Shown one piece after another: positions 50,262 to 58,128 of a stretch of DNA of 64,000 nt; within the stretch, counting starts at the first letter, position 1, and the number at the start of each line of letters is the position of its first letter. The stretch is from the IMG/VR virus record IMGVR_UViG_2648501187_000001; one strand, 5' to 3'. The position numbers and the translations under genes are program-made. This DNA comes from an uncultured virus (IMG/VR IMGVR_UViG_2648501187_000001) (taxonomy: Duplodnaviria > Heunggongvirae > Uroviricota > Caudoviricetes). The notes beneath the pieces are model-generated. The model searched no databases, had not been told where the DNA came from, and worked only from the letters and a program-made list of their open reading frames with translations.

Positions 50262-50504
50262 TCAGATGGTTTTTGCGATGAGGCTGATTGAGACGATCAG
50301 CACGGCCCAGAGGATCGCGATGCCGACCGTCCAACGGTTGAGGTTCCTCTCCGCGACCCCGGAGGTGCCCGCGTTGGCGGTCAGGCCGCCGCCGAACATG
50401 TCGGACAATCCCCCGCCCTTGCCCTTGTGCAGGAGGATCAGCAGGGACAGCAGGACGCTCAGGACGGCGACGATGGTTTTCAAGACGATGACGAGAACGG
50501 TCAT
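50262..50504 (-). CDS. secG: Preprotein translocase subunit SecG
   Basis: ILLHKGKGGGLSDMFGGG...SGVAERNLNRWT between two TM helices. Confidence 0.9.
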   Translation of the reverse strand: MTVLVIVLKTIVAVLSVLLSLLILLHKGKGGGLSDMFGGGLTANAGTSGVAERNLNRWTVGIAILWAVLIVSISLIAKTI

Positions 50505-51090
50505 GGGGTTCCTTCGTAATAGAAAATGGCGATGATGACGATCAGGGCCGTCAGATACGCGACGGCCCAACGGAGGTAGGTGCTGCGATGCTCCGGGTCG
50601 TCCGTCCATACGCTCATGAGGAGGAACGCGGACGAGGCGATGAGCATCCATAGCAGCATGGCAAGGATCACGGGATGTGTTACCGTCACCCGAACACCAT
50701 GAGCGTGAGTTCGCCGAACCCGAGATCCATGCCCGCGGCCAATATCATGGGCAGGATGACGAACACGAATGAGGCGATGCTCCAGGCCGGCCATTCGCGG
50801 GCGGCCGGAGTCGCGGTCTTGCGCAGTTCGTCCACGATCTGCCGGCAATATCGGCCTATCGGCTGAAACGGGTCTGATGCCAACGATTTCCTTTCCATGC
50901 TTCCTCCTATGCGTCCGGAAAACGGAAAAGCCCCTCCCGCGCGGGAGGGGCGGAACCGTTCCGGCATGAGGAACGGCGGATGGGCCATGCGAGCAAAGGA
51001 ATTCTTGTCCCGCGACCGGCTCATGCCACCGATCGCAAACTATCTCCCGTTCGGGAACCCGGCGTTTCGCATGTGGCCGCCGGGCCCATC

Positions 51091-51160
51091 GTGCTTCGAC
51101 GGGATTCGAACCCGCATCACCCCAAAAACGGGGCATCCTGACCGATTGAACGACGAAGCC
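51091..51160 (-). tRNA. tRNA-like gene, anticodon arm degenerate (undetermined)
   Basis: Acceptor, D and T (GGTTCGAATCC) arms are present. The anticodon loop is only about 6 nt (GTTTTT). Confidence 0.55.
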
Positions 51161-51171
51161 ATGTTGCGGAT

Positions 51172-51363
51172 ACGATGCTGGAGAGGCGGTTCCGTTCAGG
51201 CCACTGAGGTGCAGGCCTGCGCCTTGACCATCGTTCCACTCCGCCCCAATATGGCAGCGGGCGGGTGGCGGCGTTGACATCATATTCCGCAAGAATATGA
51301 GCGGAAGCGGGCGCTGCAACGGTTACGGGTCCCAGTTATGAAGAGAACCTACCGTGGCATCGT
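51172..51363 (-). ncRNA. Candidate structured ncRNA (about 190 nt)
   Basis: Closing stem ACGATGC/GCATCGT encloses three multi-stem arms. No credible ORF. Lies between tRNAs. Confidence 0.4.
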
Positions 51364-51420
51364 TCCCGTTCCGGCAGACGTTCGAACCGGATCGGGTGGC
51401 GTTGACGCCATTGCTTCCGC

Positions 51421-51497
51421 TGGTGCTTTCGCCGGGATTCGAACCCGGACTGGATGCGTCCTTGGCGCATTGCCTCTACCGGTTGGGCTACGAAAGC
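51421..51497 (-). tRNA. tRNA-Leu(AAG)-like, short variable loop, encoded CCA
   Basis: Cloverleaf. Stem ATGCG/CGCAT, loop CC-AAG-GA, A73. Confidence 0.7.
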
Positions 51498-51499
51498 AT

Positions 51500-51915
51500 G
51501 CGCGGATACCACCCTTGCGAGGTCGCAATATCCGCACAGTCCACAATCGATCCGGCCACTCGTGCCGGATCCCTGCACCCATGCCTGCGGTGGACGCGCG
51601 TACCACGGCATGAGGCATGACAGGGATCACGGGCTGTGACGCCCATGCTCCACCGAGACCGTTCCCACAGCCTGTGGGTCGGCTGACAAGAAACGCGGTC
51701 GCCCGCGTTCCAGGAAACCTTTCCCGCACTGGGCGGATAGGCTTTATCGGATTCGCACCAACCCTTCCGACAGAGAGCTGTTCGCATCATCCACTCATAG
51801 GATGATGGGCGCCGGCGATGGTCCGCGTGTCCGCCGAACAAACGGAGACGTGGACCATCGGACACGACCCGCATGGTCATGACTGCCCGCCGGGAACTCC
51901 CAACGGGCATGGAAT
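51500..51915 (-). ncRNA. Candidate large structured ncRNA (about 410 nt)
   Basis: At least 8 hairpins or long-range stems and a T-loop-like GGTGCGAATCC. No credible ORF. Flanked by tRNAs. Confidence 0.5.
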
Positions 51916-51922
51916 CGTATCG

Positions 51923-51994
51923 AGCGGTGTGCGGGAATCGAACCCGCATCATCAGTTTGGAAGACTGAAGCACTGACCGTTGTGCTAACACCGC
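51923..51994 (-). tRNA. tRNA-Gly(TCC)
   Basis: Cloverleaf. TCAGT-CTTCCAA-ACTGA. Confidence 0.92.
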
Positions 51995-52038
51995 AAACAG
52001 GAATCCGCAGACACCGTATCAGAAAGCGGATTCCCTAG

Positions 52039-52109
52039 CGGACGCCACGGGATTCGAACCCGGATCTCCACCCACAGGGGTGGCGTGCTGTCCATTACAC
52101 CAACGCCCC
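52039..52109 (-). tRNA. tRNA-His(GTG)-like, 6-nt anticodon loop (degenerate)
   Basis: CCACC-CCTGTG-GGTGG. T arm GGTTCGAATCC. Confidence 0.55.
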
Positions 52110-52239
52110 GCATGGTTGCGCGTCATGATCGTACGACCCATGCGTTTGCCTGACCGGGGATTTATCACGACGGAGGCCGGTCGGGACTCCAACGGTTCCG
52201 TTTTTACCGAGTGCGGGAACCGTCAAAATACGGCACTCG

Positions 52240-52313
52240 TGCATTGCGTTGGAATCGAACCGACGACCTCCCCGTTATGAGCAGGGTGCTCTAACCGACT
52301 GAGCTAGCAATGC
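52240..52313 (-). tRNA. tRNA-Met/Ile2(CAT)
   Basis: CCCTG-CTCATAA-CGGGG. Confidence 0.9.
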
Positions 52314-52317
52314 AAAG

Positions 52318-52390
52318 TGCCCAAGGCCGGAGTCGGACCGGCTACGCCCGGTTTAGGAAACCGGCGCTCTATCCGTTGAGCTACAAGGGC
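52318..52390 (-). tRNA. tRNA-Arg(CCT)
   Basis: CCGGT-TTCCTAA-ACCGG. Acceptor mismatches, T-loop TCCGACT. Confidence 0.8.
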
Positions 52391-52484
52391 GTTGCCTCGT
52401 GATGCACGAACCGTACGAGGCGCGACGGCGTGAGAGAGAAGAGAAGAGAGAATCCGTGCATTATGGTTGACGGAGTTTCGTGCG

Positions 52485-52557
52485 TGCCCTCAACGAGAAT
52501 CGGACTCGTGGCCTTCCGCTCCGGAGGCGGACGCTCTATCCACTGAGCTACAAGGGC
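52485..52557 (-). tRNA. tRNA-Arg(CCG)
   Basis: TCCGC-CTCCGGA-GCGGA. T-loop TCCGATT. Confidence 0.85.
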
Positions 52558-52662
52558 GTGGCGTCGTTTCGCGGCTTGGGTGACGCCTGACCCTGTATGT
52601 CCGGTACAACAAACATCGAATCGAGTGTAGAGGGAAAATCAATTCGACGTGCTGCCGCCAAG

Positions 52663-52733
52663 CTCCTCCTCCTGGATTCGAACCAGGACCAAAGGTTCCA
52701 AAGACCCGTGTGCTGCCGTTACACCAAGGAGGA
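52663..52733 (-). tRNA. tRNA-Gln(TTG)
   Basis: CGGGT-CTTTGGA-ACCTT. U1-A72. Confidence 0.85.
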
Positions 52734-52852
52734 ATGTGCGCGAACGCATCGGACACGTATGCCCGACCGCGTTCCGCCATGCCGATCCAACCCGTTTTTT
52801 GCTGACTGGATTCCAGGCCCTATCCCGTGGCCTATCACTGCAGATCGGCTAG

Positions 52853-52938
52853 CGGATGGTGCGAGAGTCGAACTCGCCGGGGGCTTCCGCCCCAACAGTC
52901 TTAGCAGGACTGCGCCTTTGCCGCACGGCCCACCATCC
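52853..52938 (-). tRNA. tRNA-Ser(GCT)
   Basis: CAGTC-CTGCTAA-GACTG, long variable arm, G73. Confidence 0.85.
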
Positions 52939-53019
52939 CATGCCGGTGTTTGCGATTCAGGGGCACACCGGCCAAACCTCGATAGGTCCCGCATGGGAAC
53001 GATTTTCATGCGGGGTTCG

Positions 53020-53104
53020 CGGAGTAGGGAGGATTCGAACCTCCGGGGGCTTGCGCCCCTGCTGCTTTCGGGACAGTCGCATTCGACCGCTCTGCCACCA
53101 CTCC
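53020..53104 (-). tRNA. tRNA-Ser(CGA)
   Basis: ACTGT-CCCGAAA-GCAGC (C33), long variable arm. Confidence 0.85.
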
Positions 53105-53154
53105 ACTGATCCACACGAAGGAACAAACTGGTTGACGTATTCGTGTGGATCTCG

Positions 53155-53229
53155 TGCTCCCGGTGGGATTCGAACCCACGACCGGACGGGTAGAAGCCGT
53201 CTGCTCTGATTCCACTGAGCTACAGGAGC
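53155..53229 (-). tRNA. tRNA-Arg(TCT)
   Basis: GACGG-CTTCTAC-CCGTC. Confidence 0.9.
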
Positions 53230-53479
53230 AAGGTGGATGGCCGGGTGGTTCAAGAAAAATCGACAACCCTTTCCAAAGGAGTAATTTCGCATTGGTTATC
53301 TGCTTTCAAACCGGCCATCCAAGATTATTTGGAGTCGTTTTTTCTTCCGCTGTCCGACTCCAAGGCAGCTGGAACATGCCGTACCTGTCAATAAAAGAAG
53401 AAAGAAACCAGGCACGTCAATCGGAAGAATACCCGTTGAAATCTTTTCAAAGCGAGTGCGAAAAGGTTTCAACGGATAG

Positions 53480-53553
53480 TGCCCCATGAGGGATTCGAAC
53501 CCGCAACCTCCTGATCCGTGGTCAGACGCTCTGTCCAATTGAGCTACAAGGGC
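53480..53553 (-). tRNA. tRNA-Arg(ACG)
   Basis: TCTGA-CCACGGA-TCAGG (C33). Confidence 0.85.
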
Positions 53554-53813
53554 GACCGCCGGATTCCTTCCAACCGTCCGGCACGGCTGCCACCGACCTG
53601 GAATCGGCGGCTGATGGAAGAAACGCGGGAAGGCGGATTGGATTTTACCGCCAACGTCGAGGACAAACGAGACCATGTCAGATCCCCTCTGGACGTGCCG
53701 CATGTTCGGTCGCAAACCGCCCTGCCGGGCCATGCGCGCCTTGGCGCCCCGTTTCCGATACGCCTGTTCGGCCATTCCCATAAAACAGTCCATTGATCGG
53801 ATGGATTGTTTCG

Positions 53814-53885
53814 TGCCTCCGTCCGGAATCGAACCGGCGTCCACAGTGCTTCAAACTGTTGCTCTACCAGCTAAGCTACAGAGGC
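53814..53885 (-). tRNA. tRNA-Phe(GAA)
   Basis: ACAGT-TTGAAGC-ACTGT. Confidence 0.88.
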
Positions 53886-54045
53886 GAGCACGGCAAGCCA
53901 TCTTTGGGAGCTCGGGCCATAAACCCTTCCCGGCTTGTCGTACTGGTGTGTTTCCTCCCTGTTTCGCGCCCGGCCGGGGGGAGCCTGCCGCAGCCTATTC
54001 GTTGATAGATCGGTGCGCTTATGCTTGGCGATTTACCAGGCATCG

Positions 54046-54117
54046 TGCCCCGACGGAATTACGATATCCGGACCCAGTGCTTAAAAGGCACCTGCTCTTC
54101 CTCTGAGCTACCGGGGC
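54046..54117 (-). tRNA. tRNA-Lys(TTT)
   Basis: GGTGC-CTTTTAA-GCACT. Atypical T-loop ATCGTAA. Confidence 0.8.
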
Positions 54118-54258
54118 GATGGCATGTTTCCTTATTCCTTGACGCTGCGTGCCCATGCCGGGGCTGTTCGTCCATGTTTTTCCGGAAGCGTCCACATGGA
54201 AAGGACGGCTGCGAGTCCCATTGTCGGATCAGATCCATTGTTTTGGTTTTCCGGATAG

Positions 54259-54330
54259 AGCGGATGACGGGGTTCGAACCCGCGGTCTCCTGCTTGGGAA
54301 GCAGGCGTGCTGCCGCTGCACCACATCCGC
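54259..54330 (-). tRNA. tRNA-Gly(CCC)
   Basis: CCTGC-TTCCCAA-GCAGG. Confidence 0.92.
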
Positions 54331-54487
54331 ACGGGCCGGCCCGCGGACGGGCCGGCCGGCCCCGCCGTCTCGCGCGCGGCCGGCGGGAGGCCGCTGTCTG
54401 CGTATCCCATCGCGGGGGCGCGCCGTCTTGACGTGACGTCGTTCCTCGGAATGTCTGCGCTTACACGCGGCGGCATGCCGCATGTCG

Positions 54488-54559
54488 TGGAGCCGGCGGG
54501 GTTCGAACCCGCGACCTTCCCGTTGCGGACGGGACGCCCTGCCACTGGGCGACGGCCCC
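54488..54559 (-). tRNA. tRNA-Ala(CGC)
   Basis: TCCCG-TCCGCAA-CGGGA (C33). G3:U70. Confidence 0.88.
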
Positions 54560-54563
54560 GAAG

Positions 54564-54636
54564 CGCCCCTGACCCGATTCGAACGGGCGACACCCGGATC
54601 CGGAATCCGGTGCTCTGTCCCCTGAGCTACAAGGGC
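54564..54636 (-). tRNA. tRNA-Arg(CCG), second copy
   Basis: CCGGA-TTCCGGA-TCCGG. Confidence 0.88.
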
Positions 54637-54829
54637 GTGCATCCGCCATGCGACGGCATGCGTCCCCGCACTGGGCGGGGGGGATTAGGGCGGGATCATG
54701 GCGCTGGCATGGTCGCGGACGGGAGAATAAAAGAAGAAAGAACCCGTCTCGCATGCCATCGTTCCCGCACGCGCGGAGAGAAGAGTCCGGCGTCGCGTGC
54801 GGGCGGCGTTCACGCCATGAACCGCTTCG

Positions 54830-54902
54830 AGCCCCGGGCCGGACACGATCCGGCGACCTTCCGCTTACGAGGCGGACGCTCTACCGGTTGAGCTACCGGG
54901 GC
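54830..54902 (-). tRNA. tRNA-Thr(CGT)
   Basis: TCCGC-CTCGTAA-GCGGA. Atypical T-loop ATCGTGT. Confidence 0.85.
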
Positions 54903-55024
54903 GGATGCCGGAAACCCCCGGCCGTCCGGTCCGAGGGGCGCGCCGTTTCCGCGGCGCGGGCCGGCGCGGGCCCGCCGTCCGGATCCCGCCGGGACCGGTC
55001 GCCCCGGCGGGATCCGCCGCTTCG

Positions 55025-55095
55025 CGCGCCATGGAGGGGTCGAACCTCCGTCTACGGTTTTGGAGACCGTCGGGCTGCCGCTGTCCCAATGGCGC
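55025..55095 (-). tRNA. tRNA-Trp(CCA)
   Basis: ACGGT-CTCCAAA-ACCGT. Confidence 0.88.
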
Positions 55096-55161
55096 GTTCA
55101 TGTTTTCCGCTCTTCGGTTTTCAAGTCTCGTCGCCGACCGTCCGTGCGGTGGCATGCGACG

Positions 55162-55170
55162 GTATGCGTC
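55162..55170 (-). promoter_or_regulatory. GACGCATAC promoter-like motif heading the tRNA array (one of about 19 copies in the window)
   Basis: Shares GGGGACGCATRCCGTCGCATG with the copy at 54656-54664 upstream of tRNA-Arg(CCG). Confidence 0.65.
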
Positions 55171-55201
55171 CCCGGTCGCGGGGATCCCCTATGCGGGCCG
55201 C

Positions 55202-55533
55202 GTATGCATTCCGGGGCGCGTGTATGCATCCGTATGCATCAGGGGATGCATACGTTTCCGTTCTCCGTTTCGGCTTGTTTCCAGCGTTCCGGGGATGGTC
55301 CGGAGGCGTGTATGCATTGTATGCATCAATCCCTTATAGAGGATTCGGGAAAAAGGAAGGAAACCCCATATATTGATGCATACAATGCATACAAGAGAAA
55401 GGAATTATATTTTTTCCTTTATTTATAAGGGTTTTCGGGCTTTTTCCGGGCTTTTTCTGTATGCATCCCCGGATGCATACAGATGCATACACGCATACAA
55501 AACGGGCCGGAAAACTTTACAATATTGTAAAGG
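55202..55533. repeat. Origin-like repeat, copy 2 (probable replication origin)
   Basis: Near-identical to 35630-35961. Inverted GTATGCAT iterons around an AT-rich tract. Immediately upstream of the helicase-primase gene. Confidence 0.85.
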
Positions 55534-55567
55534 CCGGGACCATGCCCGTCCGGCCCCGCCCCCGCGT

Positions 55568-55576
55568 GACGCATAC
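55568..55576 (+). promoter_or_regulatory. GACGCATAC promoter-like motif for the replicase gene
   Basis: 8 nt upstream of ATG 55585, no SD. Confidence 0.65.
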
Positions 55577-55584
55577 ATGCGCGC

Positions 55585-58128
55585 ATGATCGAAAACCAGT
55601 ACGGCCGTCCCGGCATCACGGGCCCGGCCACCCCCGGGCACGCGGACGGGGCGTTCCTCGCCCGCGTCGCCGACCAGCACGTGCTGCTCAAAAACCCGAC
55701 GGGCGTGACCGGCGTATGCAACACCATCCACCCCATGGCCGGCGACCCCGCGACCGACATGCCCGGCATCCCCATGCTGCGGAGCCTCGTGCAGAGGGAC
55801 GGGGCGAGCACATGGACATGGACCGATCCGAGCGGCCTCATGCCCATGTGGGCGATCCGCATGATCAGCGAGATCGTGTGCCCCGACCCCGACCTGCGCG
55901 TCCTGCCCGACCCGCAGGCGCCCGGCAAGGGCATCCTCTACCGGCGCGTCCTGCCCGACCACACCGTCGAACGCGCGCCCAGCCGATGGGCGCCCATCGG
56001 ACCCGTGCGCATCGCCTACGGCGGCTCCAAGGCCAAGGATGACCAATTGGACGGGGACGACGGATGGGTCAAGGACTCGCTCCTCCTCGCCGGACAGACC
56101 ATACGCCGCGGATGCAGCTTCGTGTGCACGGACGGGGAGATCCGCTTCGAACACGACCCCGTGTCCGGCGCGTGGACGCGCACCGAGACCCGATCCGGCG
56201 TCACCCGCTCCTGGACCGGCGCGAAAGACCTCGAATGCCGGGAACCGGATTTCAGGACGGCCACGCTCCGGGAGACGACGCCGAACCGGGTCGACGAGCC
56301 CATGACCTACACGGTGGAGACCGGATGCACGTGCGAACAGGCCGCGACGCTCGCGAACGAGGCCGGATGGATCCTCGACCAGTGGACCGGCCAGGACACG
56401 GACAGCACCCTCAACCTGCAACGCTCGCTCGCCGCCCCGTTCCTCCGCAGCCATCCGGAATGCGCGTACGTGTACCAGGGGCCGGGCGGCACCGGCAAAA
56501 GCACGCTCGCCAAGGACCTCATGGAGCATCTCGGCGACCAGGCCACGACCATGAGCCTCGACCTGCTCGCCCAGCCGACCGCCATGAGCGCCGAAAACAA
56601 AATGGGCGACCTGATGAGCCACCTGCTCGCCCTGTCCGACGACTACGATCCGACCCACGGACGGTTCGAGAAGAGCCTGCCGAACCTGAAGACCCTCCTG
56701 ACCGGGCTCCTCCCCTTCTCCGCGCGCCGCCAGGGCGAGAACAGCGTGGACGGCATGCCGCAAAGCACGCATCTGATCACCACGAACTACCATCTGCCCG
56801 TGTCCAGCTCCGAGGCCGAACAACGCCGCTTCGCGTTCAGCACCATCGCCTCGCAGACGACGCGCGCCCGCCACTATCTCCCGTTCCGCCGCAAACACGG
56901 TTTCTGGCCGTTCATGCTGGTCGGCGCGATCACATGGCTGACGATCGGCGACCGGCAATGCCGGTCCGTCGCGTTCGTCGACCTGGAAAGCCTGTCCGAC
57001 ATGGAGGTCGCCGCCATCCGCAGCGTGCTCGACACGGGCGTCGTGATCCCCGACCCCGGCATGCGCGTCAACTGGAAGAACATCGGCCTGGTGCGCACCA
57101 GCACGCGTATCGGCAGCGAGGACGGGCGTCCGCACACCGCGTACCGGCCCGCCCCCGAGGGCGACGGCCTGCACGCCGTATGGAAGGCGTGCGCGGCCGC
57201 CGTGTCCGGCATGCCCGCCGACGAGCCCGAGATCCGGCCCGTCCCCGACCGGGATCTCAAGGTCACGGACCCGGACGGGTGGGCGGACATGATCCGGGAG
57301 GCGGATCCGCGGATCTTCCCCTGCCATGCGGACAAGAGCCCGTCCAGCGACGTGCCCCACCATTCGTGGAAGGACGCGTGCCAGGATCCGCGGGTGGACA
57401 TGTCGCACCGGATCGACCCGTCGAAGCCGATCTACGGGACGACCGTCGCCGACGACTACATGTGGGTGGACCTCGACTGCCACAAGCAGGATCAGACGTC
57501 CGGCTGGGAGCAGATCCAGACGGACGTCGGCCCGTACGGGACGCCGCTCCTGCCGCGCACGTTCGCGGTGCGCACCCCGTCCGGCGGCGTCCACCTCCTC
57601 TACCACATCCCTGACGGGGCGCGCCTGAAATCCAGGACGCACAACGGAGGCCAGATCGACTTCAAAATCGGCCGCGACGGCTACGTGGTCATGGGCGGGT
57701 CCGTCCTGCCCGACGGGCGGCGCTACACGCCGATAGACCGGCCCGAGGATCGGATCCCCGACCTGTCCGACGCGTTCCTGCGCTGGGCGGAACGCGTCGA
57801 CGCGACCGACAAACCCCGTCGCCCCGCCCCCGCGCGGACGGCGGCCGCGCCGGCGGGCGGCGCGTACGATCCGCTGGCCGCGTTCGACCTGCCCTCCCCC
57901 GGCGTGGCCGGGGGCCCGGAGGGGGAGCCGGACATGAGCCCCATCCCCGAGGGGCGGCGCAACGACACGCTCTACCGGTGGGGGTACGGGCGTTGGAAGA
58001 ACCATCCCGAGGACGGGGAGCGGATCGCGCGGGACATCATGGAACGCGGACGGATCAGCGGGCTGCCCGATCGCGAGACGCTTCAGATCGTGAAAAGCGT
58101 GAGAAGTTCGGTGGAAGGAGACCGATGA
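55585..58128 (+). CDS. Replication protein: SF3/D5-like helicase + Prim-Pol (AEP) + PriCT-1
   Basis: Walker A GPGGTGKST, LSDD, LITTN (sensor 1), WVDLD and VRTPSGGVHLLY (Prim-Pol), IPEGRRNDTLY (PriCT-1). Confidence 0.9.
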   Translation: MIENQYGRPGITGPATPGHADGAFLARVADQHVLLKNPTGVTGVCNTIHPMAGDPATDMPGIPMLRSLVQRDGASTWTWTDPSGLMPMWAIRMISEIVCPDPDLRVLPDPQAPGKGILYRRVLPDHTVERAPSRWAPIGPVRIAYGGSKAKDDQLDGDDGWVKDSLLLAGQTIRRGCSFVCTDGEIRFEHDPVSGAWTRTETRSGVTRSWTGAKDLECREPDFRTATLRETTPNRVDEPMTYTVETGCTCEQAATLANEAGWILDQWTGQDTDSTLNLQRSLAAPFLRSHPECAYVYQGPGGTGKSTLAKDLMEHLGDQATTMSLDLLAQPTAMSAENKMGDLMSHLLALSDDYDPTHGRFEKSLPNLKTLLTGLLPFSARRQGENSVDGMPQSTHLITTNYHLPVSSSEAEQRRFAFSTIASQTTRARHYLPFRRKHGFWPFMLVGAITWLTIGDRQCRSVAFVDLESLSDMEVAAIRSVLDTGVVIPDPGMRVNWKNIGLVRTSTRIGSEDGRPHTAYRPAPEGDGLHAVWKACAAAVSGMPADEPEIRPVPDRDLKVTDPDGWADMIREADPRIFPCHADKSPSSDVPHHSWKDACQDPRVDMSHRIDPSKPIYGTTVADDYMWVDLDCHKQDQTSGWEQIQTDVGPYGTPLLPRTFAVRTPSGGVHLLYHIPDGARLKSRTHNGGQIDFKIGRDGYVVMGGSVLPDGRRYTPIDRPEDRIPDLSDAFLRWAERVDATDKPRRPAPARTAAAPAGGAYDPLAAFDLPSPGVAGGPEGEPDMSPIPEGRRNDTLYRWGYGRWKNHPEDGERIARDIMERGRISGLPDRETLQIVKSVRSSVEGDR

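Follow-up and report, generated by a model that had tools for sequence, protein, structure and literature searches.

A highly structured spacer in the transfer RNA array of Bifidobacterium megaplasmids as the probable source of an apparently undescribed non-coding RNA

The window analysed here, a stretch of 64,000 nucleotides (nt) recorded as an uncultured virus (IMG/VR IMGVR_UViG_2648501187_000001), carries an array of 19 transfer RNA (tRNA) genes on its minus strand (positions 51091–55095, as called by ARAGORN), 18 of which are confirmed by Rfam at the gathering score. The longest gap in the array, of 424 nt, separates tRNA-Gly(TCC) from a tRNA with an AAG anticodon, the other 17 intra-array spacers measuring 3–260 nt. 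A first-pass annotation made from the letters alone had placed a non-coding RNA (ncRNA) candidate at 51500–51915, between tRNA-Gly(TCC) and a Leu-like tRNA, and this placement holds, the candidate being the entire spacer at 51498–51921. On balance we favor the view that the spacer is an undescribed, highly structured ncRNA of ~420 nt, narrowly distributed and cut from a tRNA precursor. The locus and the predicted elements of the RNA are as follows.

51498–51921, minus strand: candidate ncRNA, the whole tRNA spacer, 424 nt here and 386–426 nt in homologs
51922–51994, minus strand: tRNA-Gly(TCC), the 5′ neighbour, found by ARAGORN and the Rfam tRNA model, CCA not encoded
51421–51497, minus strand: 77-nt AAG-anticodon tRNA, the 3′ neighbour, Leu according to ARAGORN and also found by the Rfam tRNA model, CCA encoded
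51861–51921, minus strand: long 5′ terminal hairpin (helices 1 and 2), starting at the first nucleotide past tRNA-Gly
51816–51860, minus strand: hairpin H2 (helix 3), four pairs with double changes
51540–51812, minus strand: central multi-helix domain, drawn from the helix table and per-helix covariation
51755–51812, minus strand: three-way junction within the central domain
51717–51742, 51687–51714, 51656–51684, 51624–51651, 51572–51619 and 51549–51571, minus strand: central hairpins
51748–51751 with 51540–51543, minus strand: long-range helix of 4 base pairs (bp) enclosing the central hairpins
51499–51538, minus strand: 3′ terminal hairpin (helix 17), four pairs with double changes

Folded in the sense of the tRNA genes, the spacer reaches a predicted minimum free energy (MFE) of −217.9 kcal/mol, compared with −181.8 ± 6.9 kcal/mol for 100 dinucleotide shuffles (z −5.24), none of which did as well, and in a scan of every spacer it was the most strongly folded one within the array (z −5.79). 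The dense minus-strand pairing noticed at first reading is thus borne out by folding beyond shuffles as well as by a covariation-backed consensus. An RNAalifold consensus of ten sequences already contained 136 pairs, compensatory double changes occurring in 17, and the consensus of the full alignment (A2, 59 distinct spacer sequences) comprises 143 pairs in 17 helices, 98.5% of its 8362 cells forming standard pairs. Changes on both sides of a pair occur in 28 of the 143 pairs, compared with 17.5 ± 1.5 when partners are reshuffled (0 of 500 reshufflings reached 28), and the cells carrying them number 349, compared with 122.5 in the partner shuffles; six slid controls gave 2–7 double-change pairs and 33–40% pairing. 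Because pairs were counted on the alignment that had itself yielded the consensus, a control was added in which 20 column-shuffled alignments were refolded. These averaged −205.6 ± 8.1 kcal/mol, against −290.5 kcal/mol observed (z −10.4), and contained 6.0 double-change pairs on average and 11 at most. Paired columns are also more conserved than unpaired ones (0.919 vs 0.853). G-U pairs account for 11.4% of cells, with eight pairs being G-U in at least 90% of sequences, which identifies the tRNA strand as the one that folds. Since compensatory changes imply selection on pairing, we regard it as very probable that the spacer folds into an RNA structure under genuine selection.

Transferred to the window copy, the consensus shows 141 pairs with 12 hairpin loops and three multibranch loops, leaving 67% of the nucleotides paired, and its helices run from nt 1 to nt 423 of 424, adjoining both tRNAs. 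The 5′ hairpin carries the apical loop AGUU (51895–51898) and a conserved unpaired CAUGAC (51876–51881). In H2 the apical loop UGUUC (51836–51840) is invariant in 59 of 59 sequences, while the stem in the most divergent homologs (L083 and L138) has changed at nearly every position and still pairs. Within the central domain, hairpin 51572–51619 contains two nested small hairpins and a nearly invariant loop, UCCAC (51590–51594). The 3′ terminal hairpin stops 1–2 nt before the AAG-anticodon tRNA and exists in two unrelated sequence versions and one short version, every one of which forms a hairpin. Invariant loops (UGUUC, UCCAC, CAUGAC, AGUU) on variable stems suggest, speculatively, sequence-specific contacts with a partner.

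Eight pairings had been singled out by eye, and seven of them reappear in the covariation-supported consensus: the ATGCCCG...CGGGCA hairpin, CGATGGTCC/GGACCATCG, CATCATCC/GGATGATG, AACGCGG..CCGCGTT, CCCACAGGCTGTGGG, ATCCGGC/GCCGGAT and GCGGATA/TATCCGC. The eighth, GATCCCTG/CAGGGATC, is not favored by the alignment: it is paired in 87.9% of cells, two of its positions are broken in 25–27 of the 59 sequences, and it competes with better-supported helices. Nor is GGTGCGAATCC the T-loop-like element it had been taken for, its first loop base, U in some sequences and C in others, having an invariant G as its partner in a long-range helix (G-C in 31 sequences, G-U in 28). A brute-force scan for pseudoknots and tertiary contacts returned only GUCCAC/GUGGAC, CAUGAC/GUCAUG and GUUUCC/GGGAAC, all invariant or weakly covarying, and a proposed contact of the H2 loop UGUUCG with a downstream CGAACA was rejected, the CGAACA segment being altered in several variants.

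The spacer had also been described as lacking a credible open reading frame. In substance this is correct, as the spacer is non-coding, but a stop-free frame does cross all of it in 27 of the 59 variants. The frame in question (167 codons, 51488–51991) starts inside tRNA-Gly; counting as open any frame that is stop-free across at least 90% of the spacer RNA, it is open in those 27 variants and absent from the other 32. Spacer lengths over the 59 variants spread across all three residues modulo 3, variable columns are distributed over the codon positions as 59/141, 68/142 and 57/141 (p 0.40, no third-position excess), and a Pfam search of the frame found no match at E (expect value) ≤ 1. A protein-coding reading was accordingly rejected.

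The covariance-model search that the first-pass annotation had called for matched no family. Rfam 15 returned none for the spacer at the gathering score over the window, at E ≤ 10 over 50800–55400 (4.6 kb), or at E ≤ 10 with the laxest filters over 51480–51940 (461 nt), where four matches at E 2–5 (scr5239, Mico1, Methylosinus-1 and sR30) scored 10–15 bits against gathering scores of 38–145 and are noise. A recognisable GOLLD, ROOL, transfer-messenger RNA (tmRNA), RNase P RNA, tRNA or manA motif is thereby excluded. Specifically, a decayed tRNA or tRNA pseudogene was rejected, as there is no tRNA-model match inside 51498–51921 at E ≤ 10 and the putative T-loop is variable and paired. A tmRNA was rejected on the grounds that ARAGORN finds none in the window, no tmRNA-clan family of Rfam matches, and the spacer bears no likeness to the published tmRNA region of plasmid pMP7017 from Bifidobacterium breve. 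The manA motif likewise has no match in the spacer, the sole manA-like match in the array lying elsewhere (53622–53796).

Four RNA libraries from three studies (X1, X3, X5 and X6) were mapped on 50500–55700, as assembled contigs that give neither ends, strand nor level. In the metatranscriptome X5 a 351-nt contig equals 51543–51893 with 0 differences, and in X6, an rRNA-depleted library of a separate study with 386 contigs in all, a 324-nt contig covers 51586–51906 at a depth of 13.4. The X5 and X6 contigs end before both flanking tRNAs and none bridges the AAG-anticodon tRNA; contigs of these two libraries also cover the 260-nt spacer beyond it (51152–51422 and 51277–51429) and the manA-like region, and leave 51423–51542 uncovered, the 3′ hairpin included, a gap to which we attach no meaning. 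Long contigs from X1 and X3, which belong to one third study, cross the spacer (50947–53343 and 51261–54070), and the former ends at the following element.

50930–50951, minus strand: terminator-like hairpin of 9 bp, eight of them G-C, followed by TTTTCCGTTT

This hairpin probably ends the transcription unit holding the spacer RNA. The X5 and X6 contigs show that the spacer is present in RNA preparations and provide hints that it exists as a separate species, and we lean towards its accumulation as a discrete RNA.

Homologs were collected by motif scans and BLAST over viral contigs, plasmids, Bifidobacterium genomes and metagenome stretches. The spacer occurs in 11 contigs of the viral collection, in six of 72,556 PLSDB plasmids (all Bifidobacterium megaplasmids, one copy each) and in two of 151 Bifidobacterium species genomes, found by blastn and again by R1, a covariance model of the spacer 5′ domain; 13 further blastn matches in the same 151 genomes, shorter than 40 nt and at E 1e-4 to 7e-3, were taken as chance. 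Metagenomes contributed 108 stretches, of which only the 80 with full flanks entered the homolog set, 78 as true homologs and two as chance matches. In total 91 loci yielded 82 complete spacers and 59 distinct sequences, 386–426 nt long and 79–100% identical to the window. Among 50,697 phage records blastn matched the flanking tRNAs only and never the spacer. Applied to 151 genomes sampled across the class, R1 found one genome (G001) and two weak matches of 27 and 23 bits that lie away from any tRNA, and within the window it found no paralog, the next best match scoring 21.6 bits compared with 121.9 for the spacer RNA. Three pattern scans of the viral contigs recovered the same 11 contigs, apart from chance hairpins in L056 and L061, whereas two-motif scans of a species-genome collection, which speak for taxa other than near kin, gave 0 and then two chance matches in proteobacterial metagenome-assembled genomes, both lacking an R1 match.

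The genomic setting of these copies is constant where it touches the spacer, with tRNA-Gly(TCC) as 5′ neighbour and the AAG-anticodon tRNA as 3′ neighbour in 82 of 82 complete homologous loci. Between plasmids, array tRNAs are gained and lost, while the module tRNA-Gln(CTG)–tRNA-Gly(TCC)–spacer–tRNA(AAG) and the ~500 nt that follow stay the same. The array and its flanks are 84–91% identical to Bifidobacterium longum plasmids of 169–198 kb and to B. breve pMP7017, and a 186,745-bp record classed as a provirus (G002) matches the window region at 99%. Judged from these similarities, the host replicon of the window array is a pMP7017-type Bifidobacterium megaplasmid. One array copy lies inside a one-contig genome of 2.4 Mb (G001), and both chromosomally integrated copies (G001 and G078) keep the spacer. 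The RNA was found only in this megaplasmid family and its integrated copies, to which it appears to be confined.

According to the explanation we favor, the spacer RNA would be transcribed within the last tRNA transcription unit of the array, after which tRNA-Gly, which has no encoded CCA, would be severed on its 3′ side by RNase Z or a different 3′-processing activity, and the AAG-anticodon tRNA on its 5′ side by RNase P. In keeping with established tRNA maturation, these two activities acting at these tRNAs would release exactly this segment, and its terminal helices would shield the product from exonucleases so that a stable species accumulates. We infer release by processing of the flanking tRNAs because the helices extend from nt 1 to nt 423 of 424 and the contigs stop before the tRNAs, so that anatomy and contig ends both fit. 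The mature RNA might then act in trans through its shape and the invariant loops UGUUC, UCCAC and CAUGAC as a scaffold for protein or RNA, a step we put forward tentatively; its partner could be a protein, the ribosome, a tRNA or a second copy of the spacer RNA. Such an RNA would belong to a translation-related RNA module of the plasmid, which in pMP7017 includes ~20 tRNAs, a manA motif and a tmRNA. By-products of tRNA precursors with functions of their own are known from Escherichia coli, where RNAs from tRNA-operon spacers, 3′ETS-leuZ and the internal spacers of metZWV, sponge small RNAs and are released by the same RNases. The E. coli RNAs are tens of nucleotides long, largely unstructured and act by base pairing, whereas the array spacer RNA has ~420 nt and is 67% paired.

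Several observations weigh against this explanation. Apart from the derivation of the consensus from the very alignment on which pairs were counted, the homologs are close (79–100%) and visibly recombinant mosaics of few lineages, for which reason cells are not independent events and cell counts overstate the number of independent changes; the covariance model, likewise built from spacer homologs, has an effective sequence number of 0.76. The narrow range thus limits both the statistical depth of the covariation and any claim of sophisticated function. Judged by identity to the B. longum plasmids, the spacer (86.6–87%) is no better conserved than the surrounding 1.1-kb block (~90%). On the RNA side, the 3′ hairpin and the first 15–28 nt lie outside the X5 and X6 contigs, array depth in X1 and X3 equals that of flanking DNA (~20–25), so that DNA carry-over is possible there, and contigs as such cannot show ends, strand or level. 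No pseudoknot or tertiary contact gained support in the brute-force scan, and the function of the RNA is wholly inferred. Finally, several other array spacers fold well (51161–51420, z −4.2, more exactly −4.18; 53230–53478, z −4.6; 54637–54828, z −4.3), and strong structure may be a general property of the spacers in this array.

This last point leads directly to the main rival, a structured spacer that is purely cis-acting and has no role once excised. Its helices would organise or insulate the polycistronic tRNA precursor, perhaps by offering the flanking tRNAs to RNase P and RNase Z or by keeping exonucleases out. Helices adjoining both tRNAs exactly, unusual stability in the three other spacers just mentioned, an identity no higher than that of the surrounding block and a very narrow distribution are all as such a spacer would have them. 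It would account less well for a length 1.6 to >100 times that of the other 17 intra-array spacers, for ~17 helices kept by 28 double changes, for loops kept invariant on changing stems, something a mere insulator could do without, for a module present in every copy examined although the array gains and loses tRNAs, and for the appearance of the spacer as contigs in a very shallow RNA library. We consider a purely cis-acting spacer unlikely, if the most serious competitor of the favored explanation.

Large RNAs found among tRNA genes are already exemplified by two families, GOLLD, which we take to be Rfam RF01998, and ROOL, presumably RF03087, and work by Morgado in 2020, cited by PMC12286853, reportedly places GOLLD in Mycobacterium tRNA arrays. 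Both families are described as often lying near tRNA islands of phages and prophages, GOLLD exceeding 800 nt in many members and sometimes holding tRNAs in its linker (PMC12286853), while ROOL averages 581 nt (PMC5737381) and is abundant, folds into a complex structure with multiple junctions and occurs on mobile elements close to tRNAs, its function being unknown (PMC5737381, PMC12286853). Cage-like structures have been solved for the two RNAs, whose functions are reported to remain unknown (PMC12286853). The spacer RNA resembles GOLLD as a large ornate RNA of unknown function on mobile DNA among tRNA genes, here an array of 19, and the AAG-anticodon tRNA, which separates structured, transcribed segments of 424 nt and 260 nt, recalls the tRNAs within the GOLLD linker; it differs in having no match to the covariance model, the universally conserved 3′ domain of GOLLD included, in its size (386–426 nt vs >800 nt) and in residing on a conjugative megaplasmid rather than on a phage or prophage. 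With ROOL it shares the multi-junction fold, the vicinity of tRNAs and the mobile element, but again there is no model match, and its 424 nt, fewer than the ROOL average, form three multibranch loops with no supported pseudoknot and occur in one plasmid family only.

The first-pass annotation had proposed a member of the GOLLD/ROOL group or a new class, and it is the second half of this proposal that stands, on the strength of covariation, the absence of an Rfam match and the RNA contigs. Membership itself is not supported, the RNA falling short in model match, in size and in the number of junctions or pseudoknots; the likeness appears to be one of genomic logic only. A highly divergent or truncated member of either family would share the context of a tRNA array on a mobile element, yet none of the three Rfam searches gave a model match and the spacer RNA is roughly half to three-quarters the size of these RNAs, which makes this origin very improbable.

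Equally improbable is a structure that works as DNA, in the form of a single-strand origin or a transfer-related site of a conjugative plasmid, with the RNA being incidental. Both strands do fold well (z −5.24 and, for the opposite, plus strand, −4.74), a primase/replicase-type gene lies ~3.7 kb away, and the pMP7017-type plasmid family is described as conjugative (PMC8313286). Even so, the G-U pairs of the tRNA-sense strand (11.4% of cells) would turn into A-C mismatches on the opposite one, and the element, flanked by tRNA genes within a transcription unit, turns up in RNA libraries and persists in the chromosomally integrated copies. Weakest of all is a functionless remnant of decayed tRNA genes or of a protein-coding sequence (the 167-codon frame), for which the stop-free frame of the 27 variants and the quick turnover of tRNA arrays might be cited, and which is largely refuted by the 32 variants lacking that frame, its start inside tRNA-Gly, the lack of codon-position bias (p 0.40), of a Pfam match and of a tRNA-model match at E ≤ 10, and the selection evident from compensatory changes.

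A bolder extension of the favored explanation, doubtful as it must be considered, would make the spacer RNA a third independent class of large ornate tRNA-island RNA after GOLLD and ROOL, forming an RNA-only or RNA–protein assembly, possibly together with the 260-nt spacer RNA, that serves the plasmid by acting on the translation machinery. Such an assembly might, for example, hold or buffer the plasmid's rare-codon tRNAs or engage ribosomes, and if true the class would have no precedent on a conjugative plasmid or in human-gut Actinomycetota.

Two further features of the region bear on the surroundings of the spacer RNA.

51161–51420, minus strand: spacer of 260 nt immediately following the AAG-anticodon tRNA, likewise structured and transcribed
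55585–58128: Prim-Pol/DUF5906 primase-type gene, ~3.7 kb from the spacer

The 260-nt spacer is 95–99% conserved, more than the 424-nt RNA, and its consensus folds well beyond column shuffles (alifold z −6.1), with one covarying pair among 11 distinct copies, which vary little; three lineages, pMP7017 among them, have other sequence in place of its first ~100 nt. It may be a companion of the 424-nt RNA. A bipartite RNA composed of the two segments was considered and rejected, the duplex energy (−206.8) falling within that of shuffles (−194.8 ± 7.5), only eight of 256 MFE pairs joining the segments, and no significant complementarity being found between them.

The manA-like match at 53622–53796 (minus strand) falls short of the RF01745 gathering score, with 41.7 bits where 55.2 are required and E 1.7e-8 over the 4.6 kb searched. 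It is homologous to the published manA motif of pMP7017, and RNA contigs cover 53635–53731 at a depth of 47 in X6 and 838 in X5, the latter possibly derived from other organisms. The motif was described from marine phages and gamma-proteobacteria, and its occurrence in the tRNA array of a Bifidobacterium plasmid, though already published, is odd. As to the other RNA described from that plasmid, ARAGORN detects no tmRNA in an extract (L010 201–760) containing the published tmRNA stretch (L010 265–661, corresponding to 120,876–121,272), and the window has no sequence like that stretch, so that this array either lacks the element or carries it elsewhere.

Among the array tRNAs, the AAG-anticodon 'Leu' tRNA (51421–51497) is short for its kind at 77 nt and lacks the long variable arm that bacterial Leu tRNAs usually carry. 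ARAGORN was unable to assign the tRNAs at 52038–52108 and 51091–51160 (both minus strand; anticodon loops 'tg' and 'tt'), whose counterparts in relatives are called tRNA-Gln(CTG) and tRNA-Lys(TTT). At the position of the window's tRNA-Arg(TCT), two B. longum plasmids (L013 3280–3354, NZ_CP065398.1; L014 3284–3358, NZ_CP143940.1) have a CTA-anticodon tRNA, labelled 'Pyl' by ARAGORN, that would read the amber stop codon.

Between the first array tRNA and the Prim-Pol gene, the segment 55096–55584 folds exceptionally on both strands (z ~−8.9 and ~−8.3) and includes a long A+T-rich hairpin (~55307–55396) that draws microRNA-precursor noise matches in Rfam. The replicon might have its origin, an iteron region or a promoter region in this segment. 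Other neighbouring genes encode a SpaA-domain protein, an MmeI-type restriction-modification enzyme, TnpB and a FemAB-family protein, and by their content fit a plasmid backbone. Just downstream of the array terminator, a 129-codon frame (50262–50651, minus strand) matches SecG (TIGR00810, 55 bits, above cutoff) and has a 55-residue N-terminal extension, as if the plasmid carried its own copy of this housekeeping translocase subunit.

The closest published description of such a locus is the pMP7017 transcriptome of Dineen et al. 2024, the text of which lists 20 tRNAs, divided among three transcription units, and no ncRNAs beyond a tmRNA at 120,876–121,272 and a manA motif at 122,656–122,830 (PMC10832533). 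The pMP7017 copy of the spacer RNA lies at 124,536–124,946. It shares locus, strand and transcription context with these two, all being structured RNAs interleaved with plasmid tRNA genes, but it sits at another position and has no sequence similarity to the tmRNA region. The text of that paper, taken without its supplement, which is outside this comparison, does not mention an RNA there (PMC10832533), and full-text literature yielded no other paper describing an RNA at this spacer.

The spacer RNA is thus real and apparently undescribed, a new family within a kind of RNA for which GOLLD and ROOL are the precedents, and the list of RNAs published for the pMP7017 plasmid family is incomplete. 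Few bacterial ncRNAs exceed 400 nt and have many conserved helices, and among such large RNAs the ones that are understood (ribosomal RNA, RNase P, group I/II introns, tmRNA) perform sophisticated chemistry. Reads positive for pMP7017 are reported from 206 of 1846 metagenomes, and the megaplasmid is transferable into the gut commensal B. breve UCC2003 (PMC10832533), a harmless and genetically tractable strain that opens the spacer RNA to genetic study. A smaller, unrelated RNA with the tRNA-island habit of GOLLD and ROOL could in this way make the question of their function testable.

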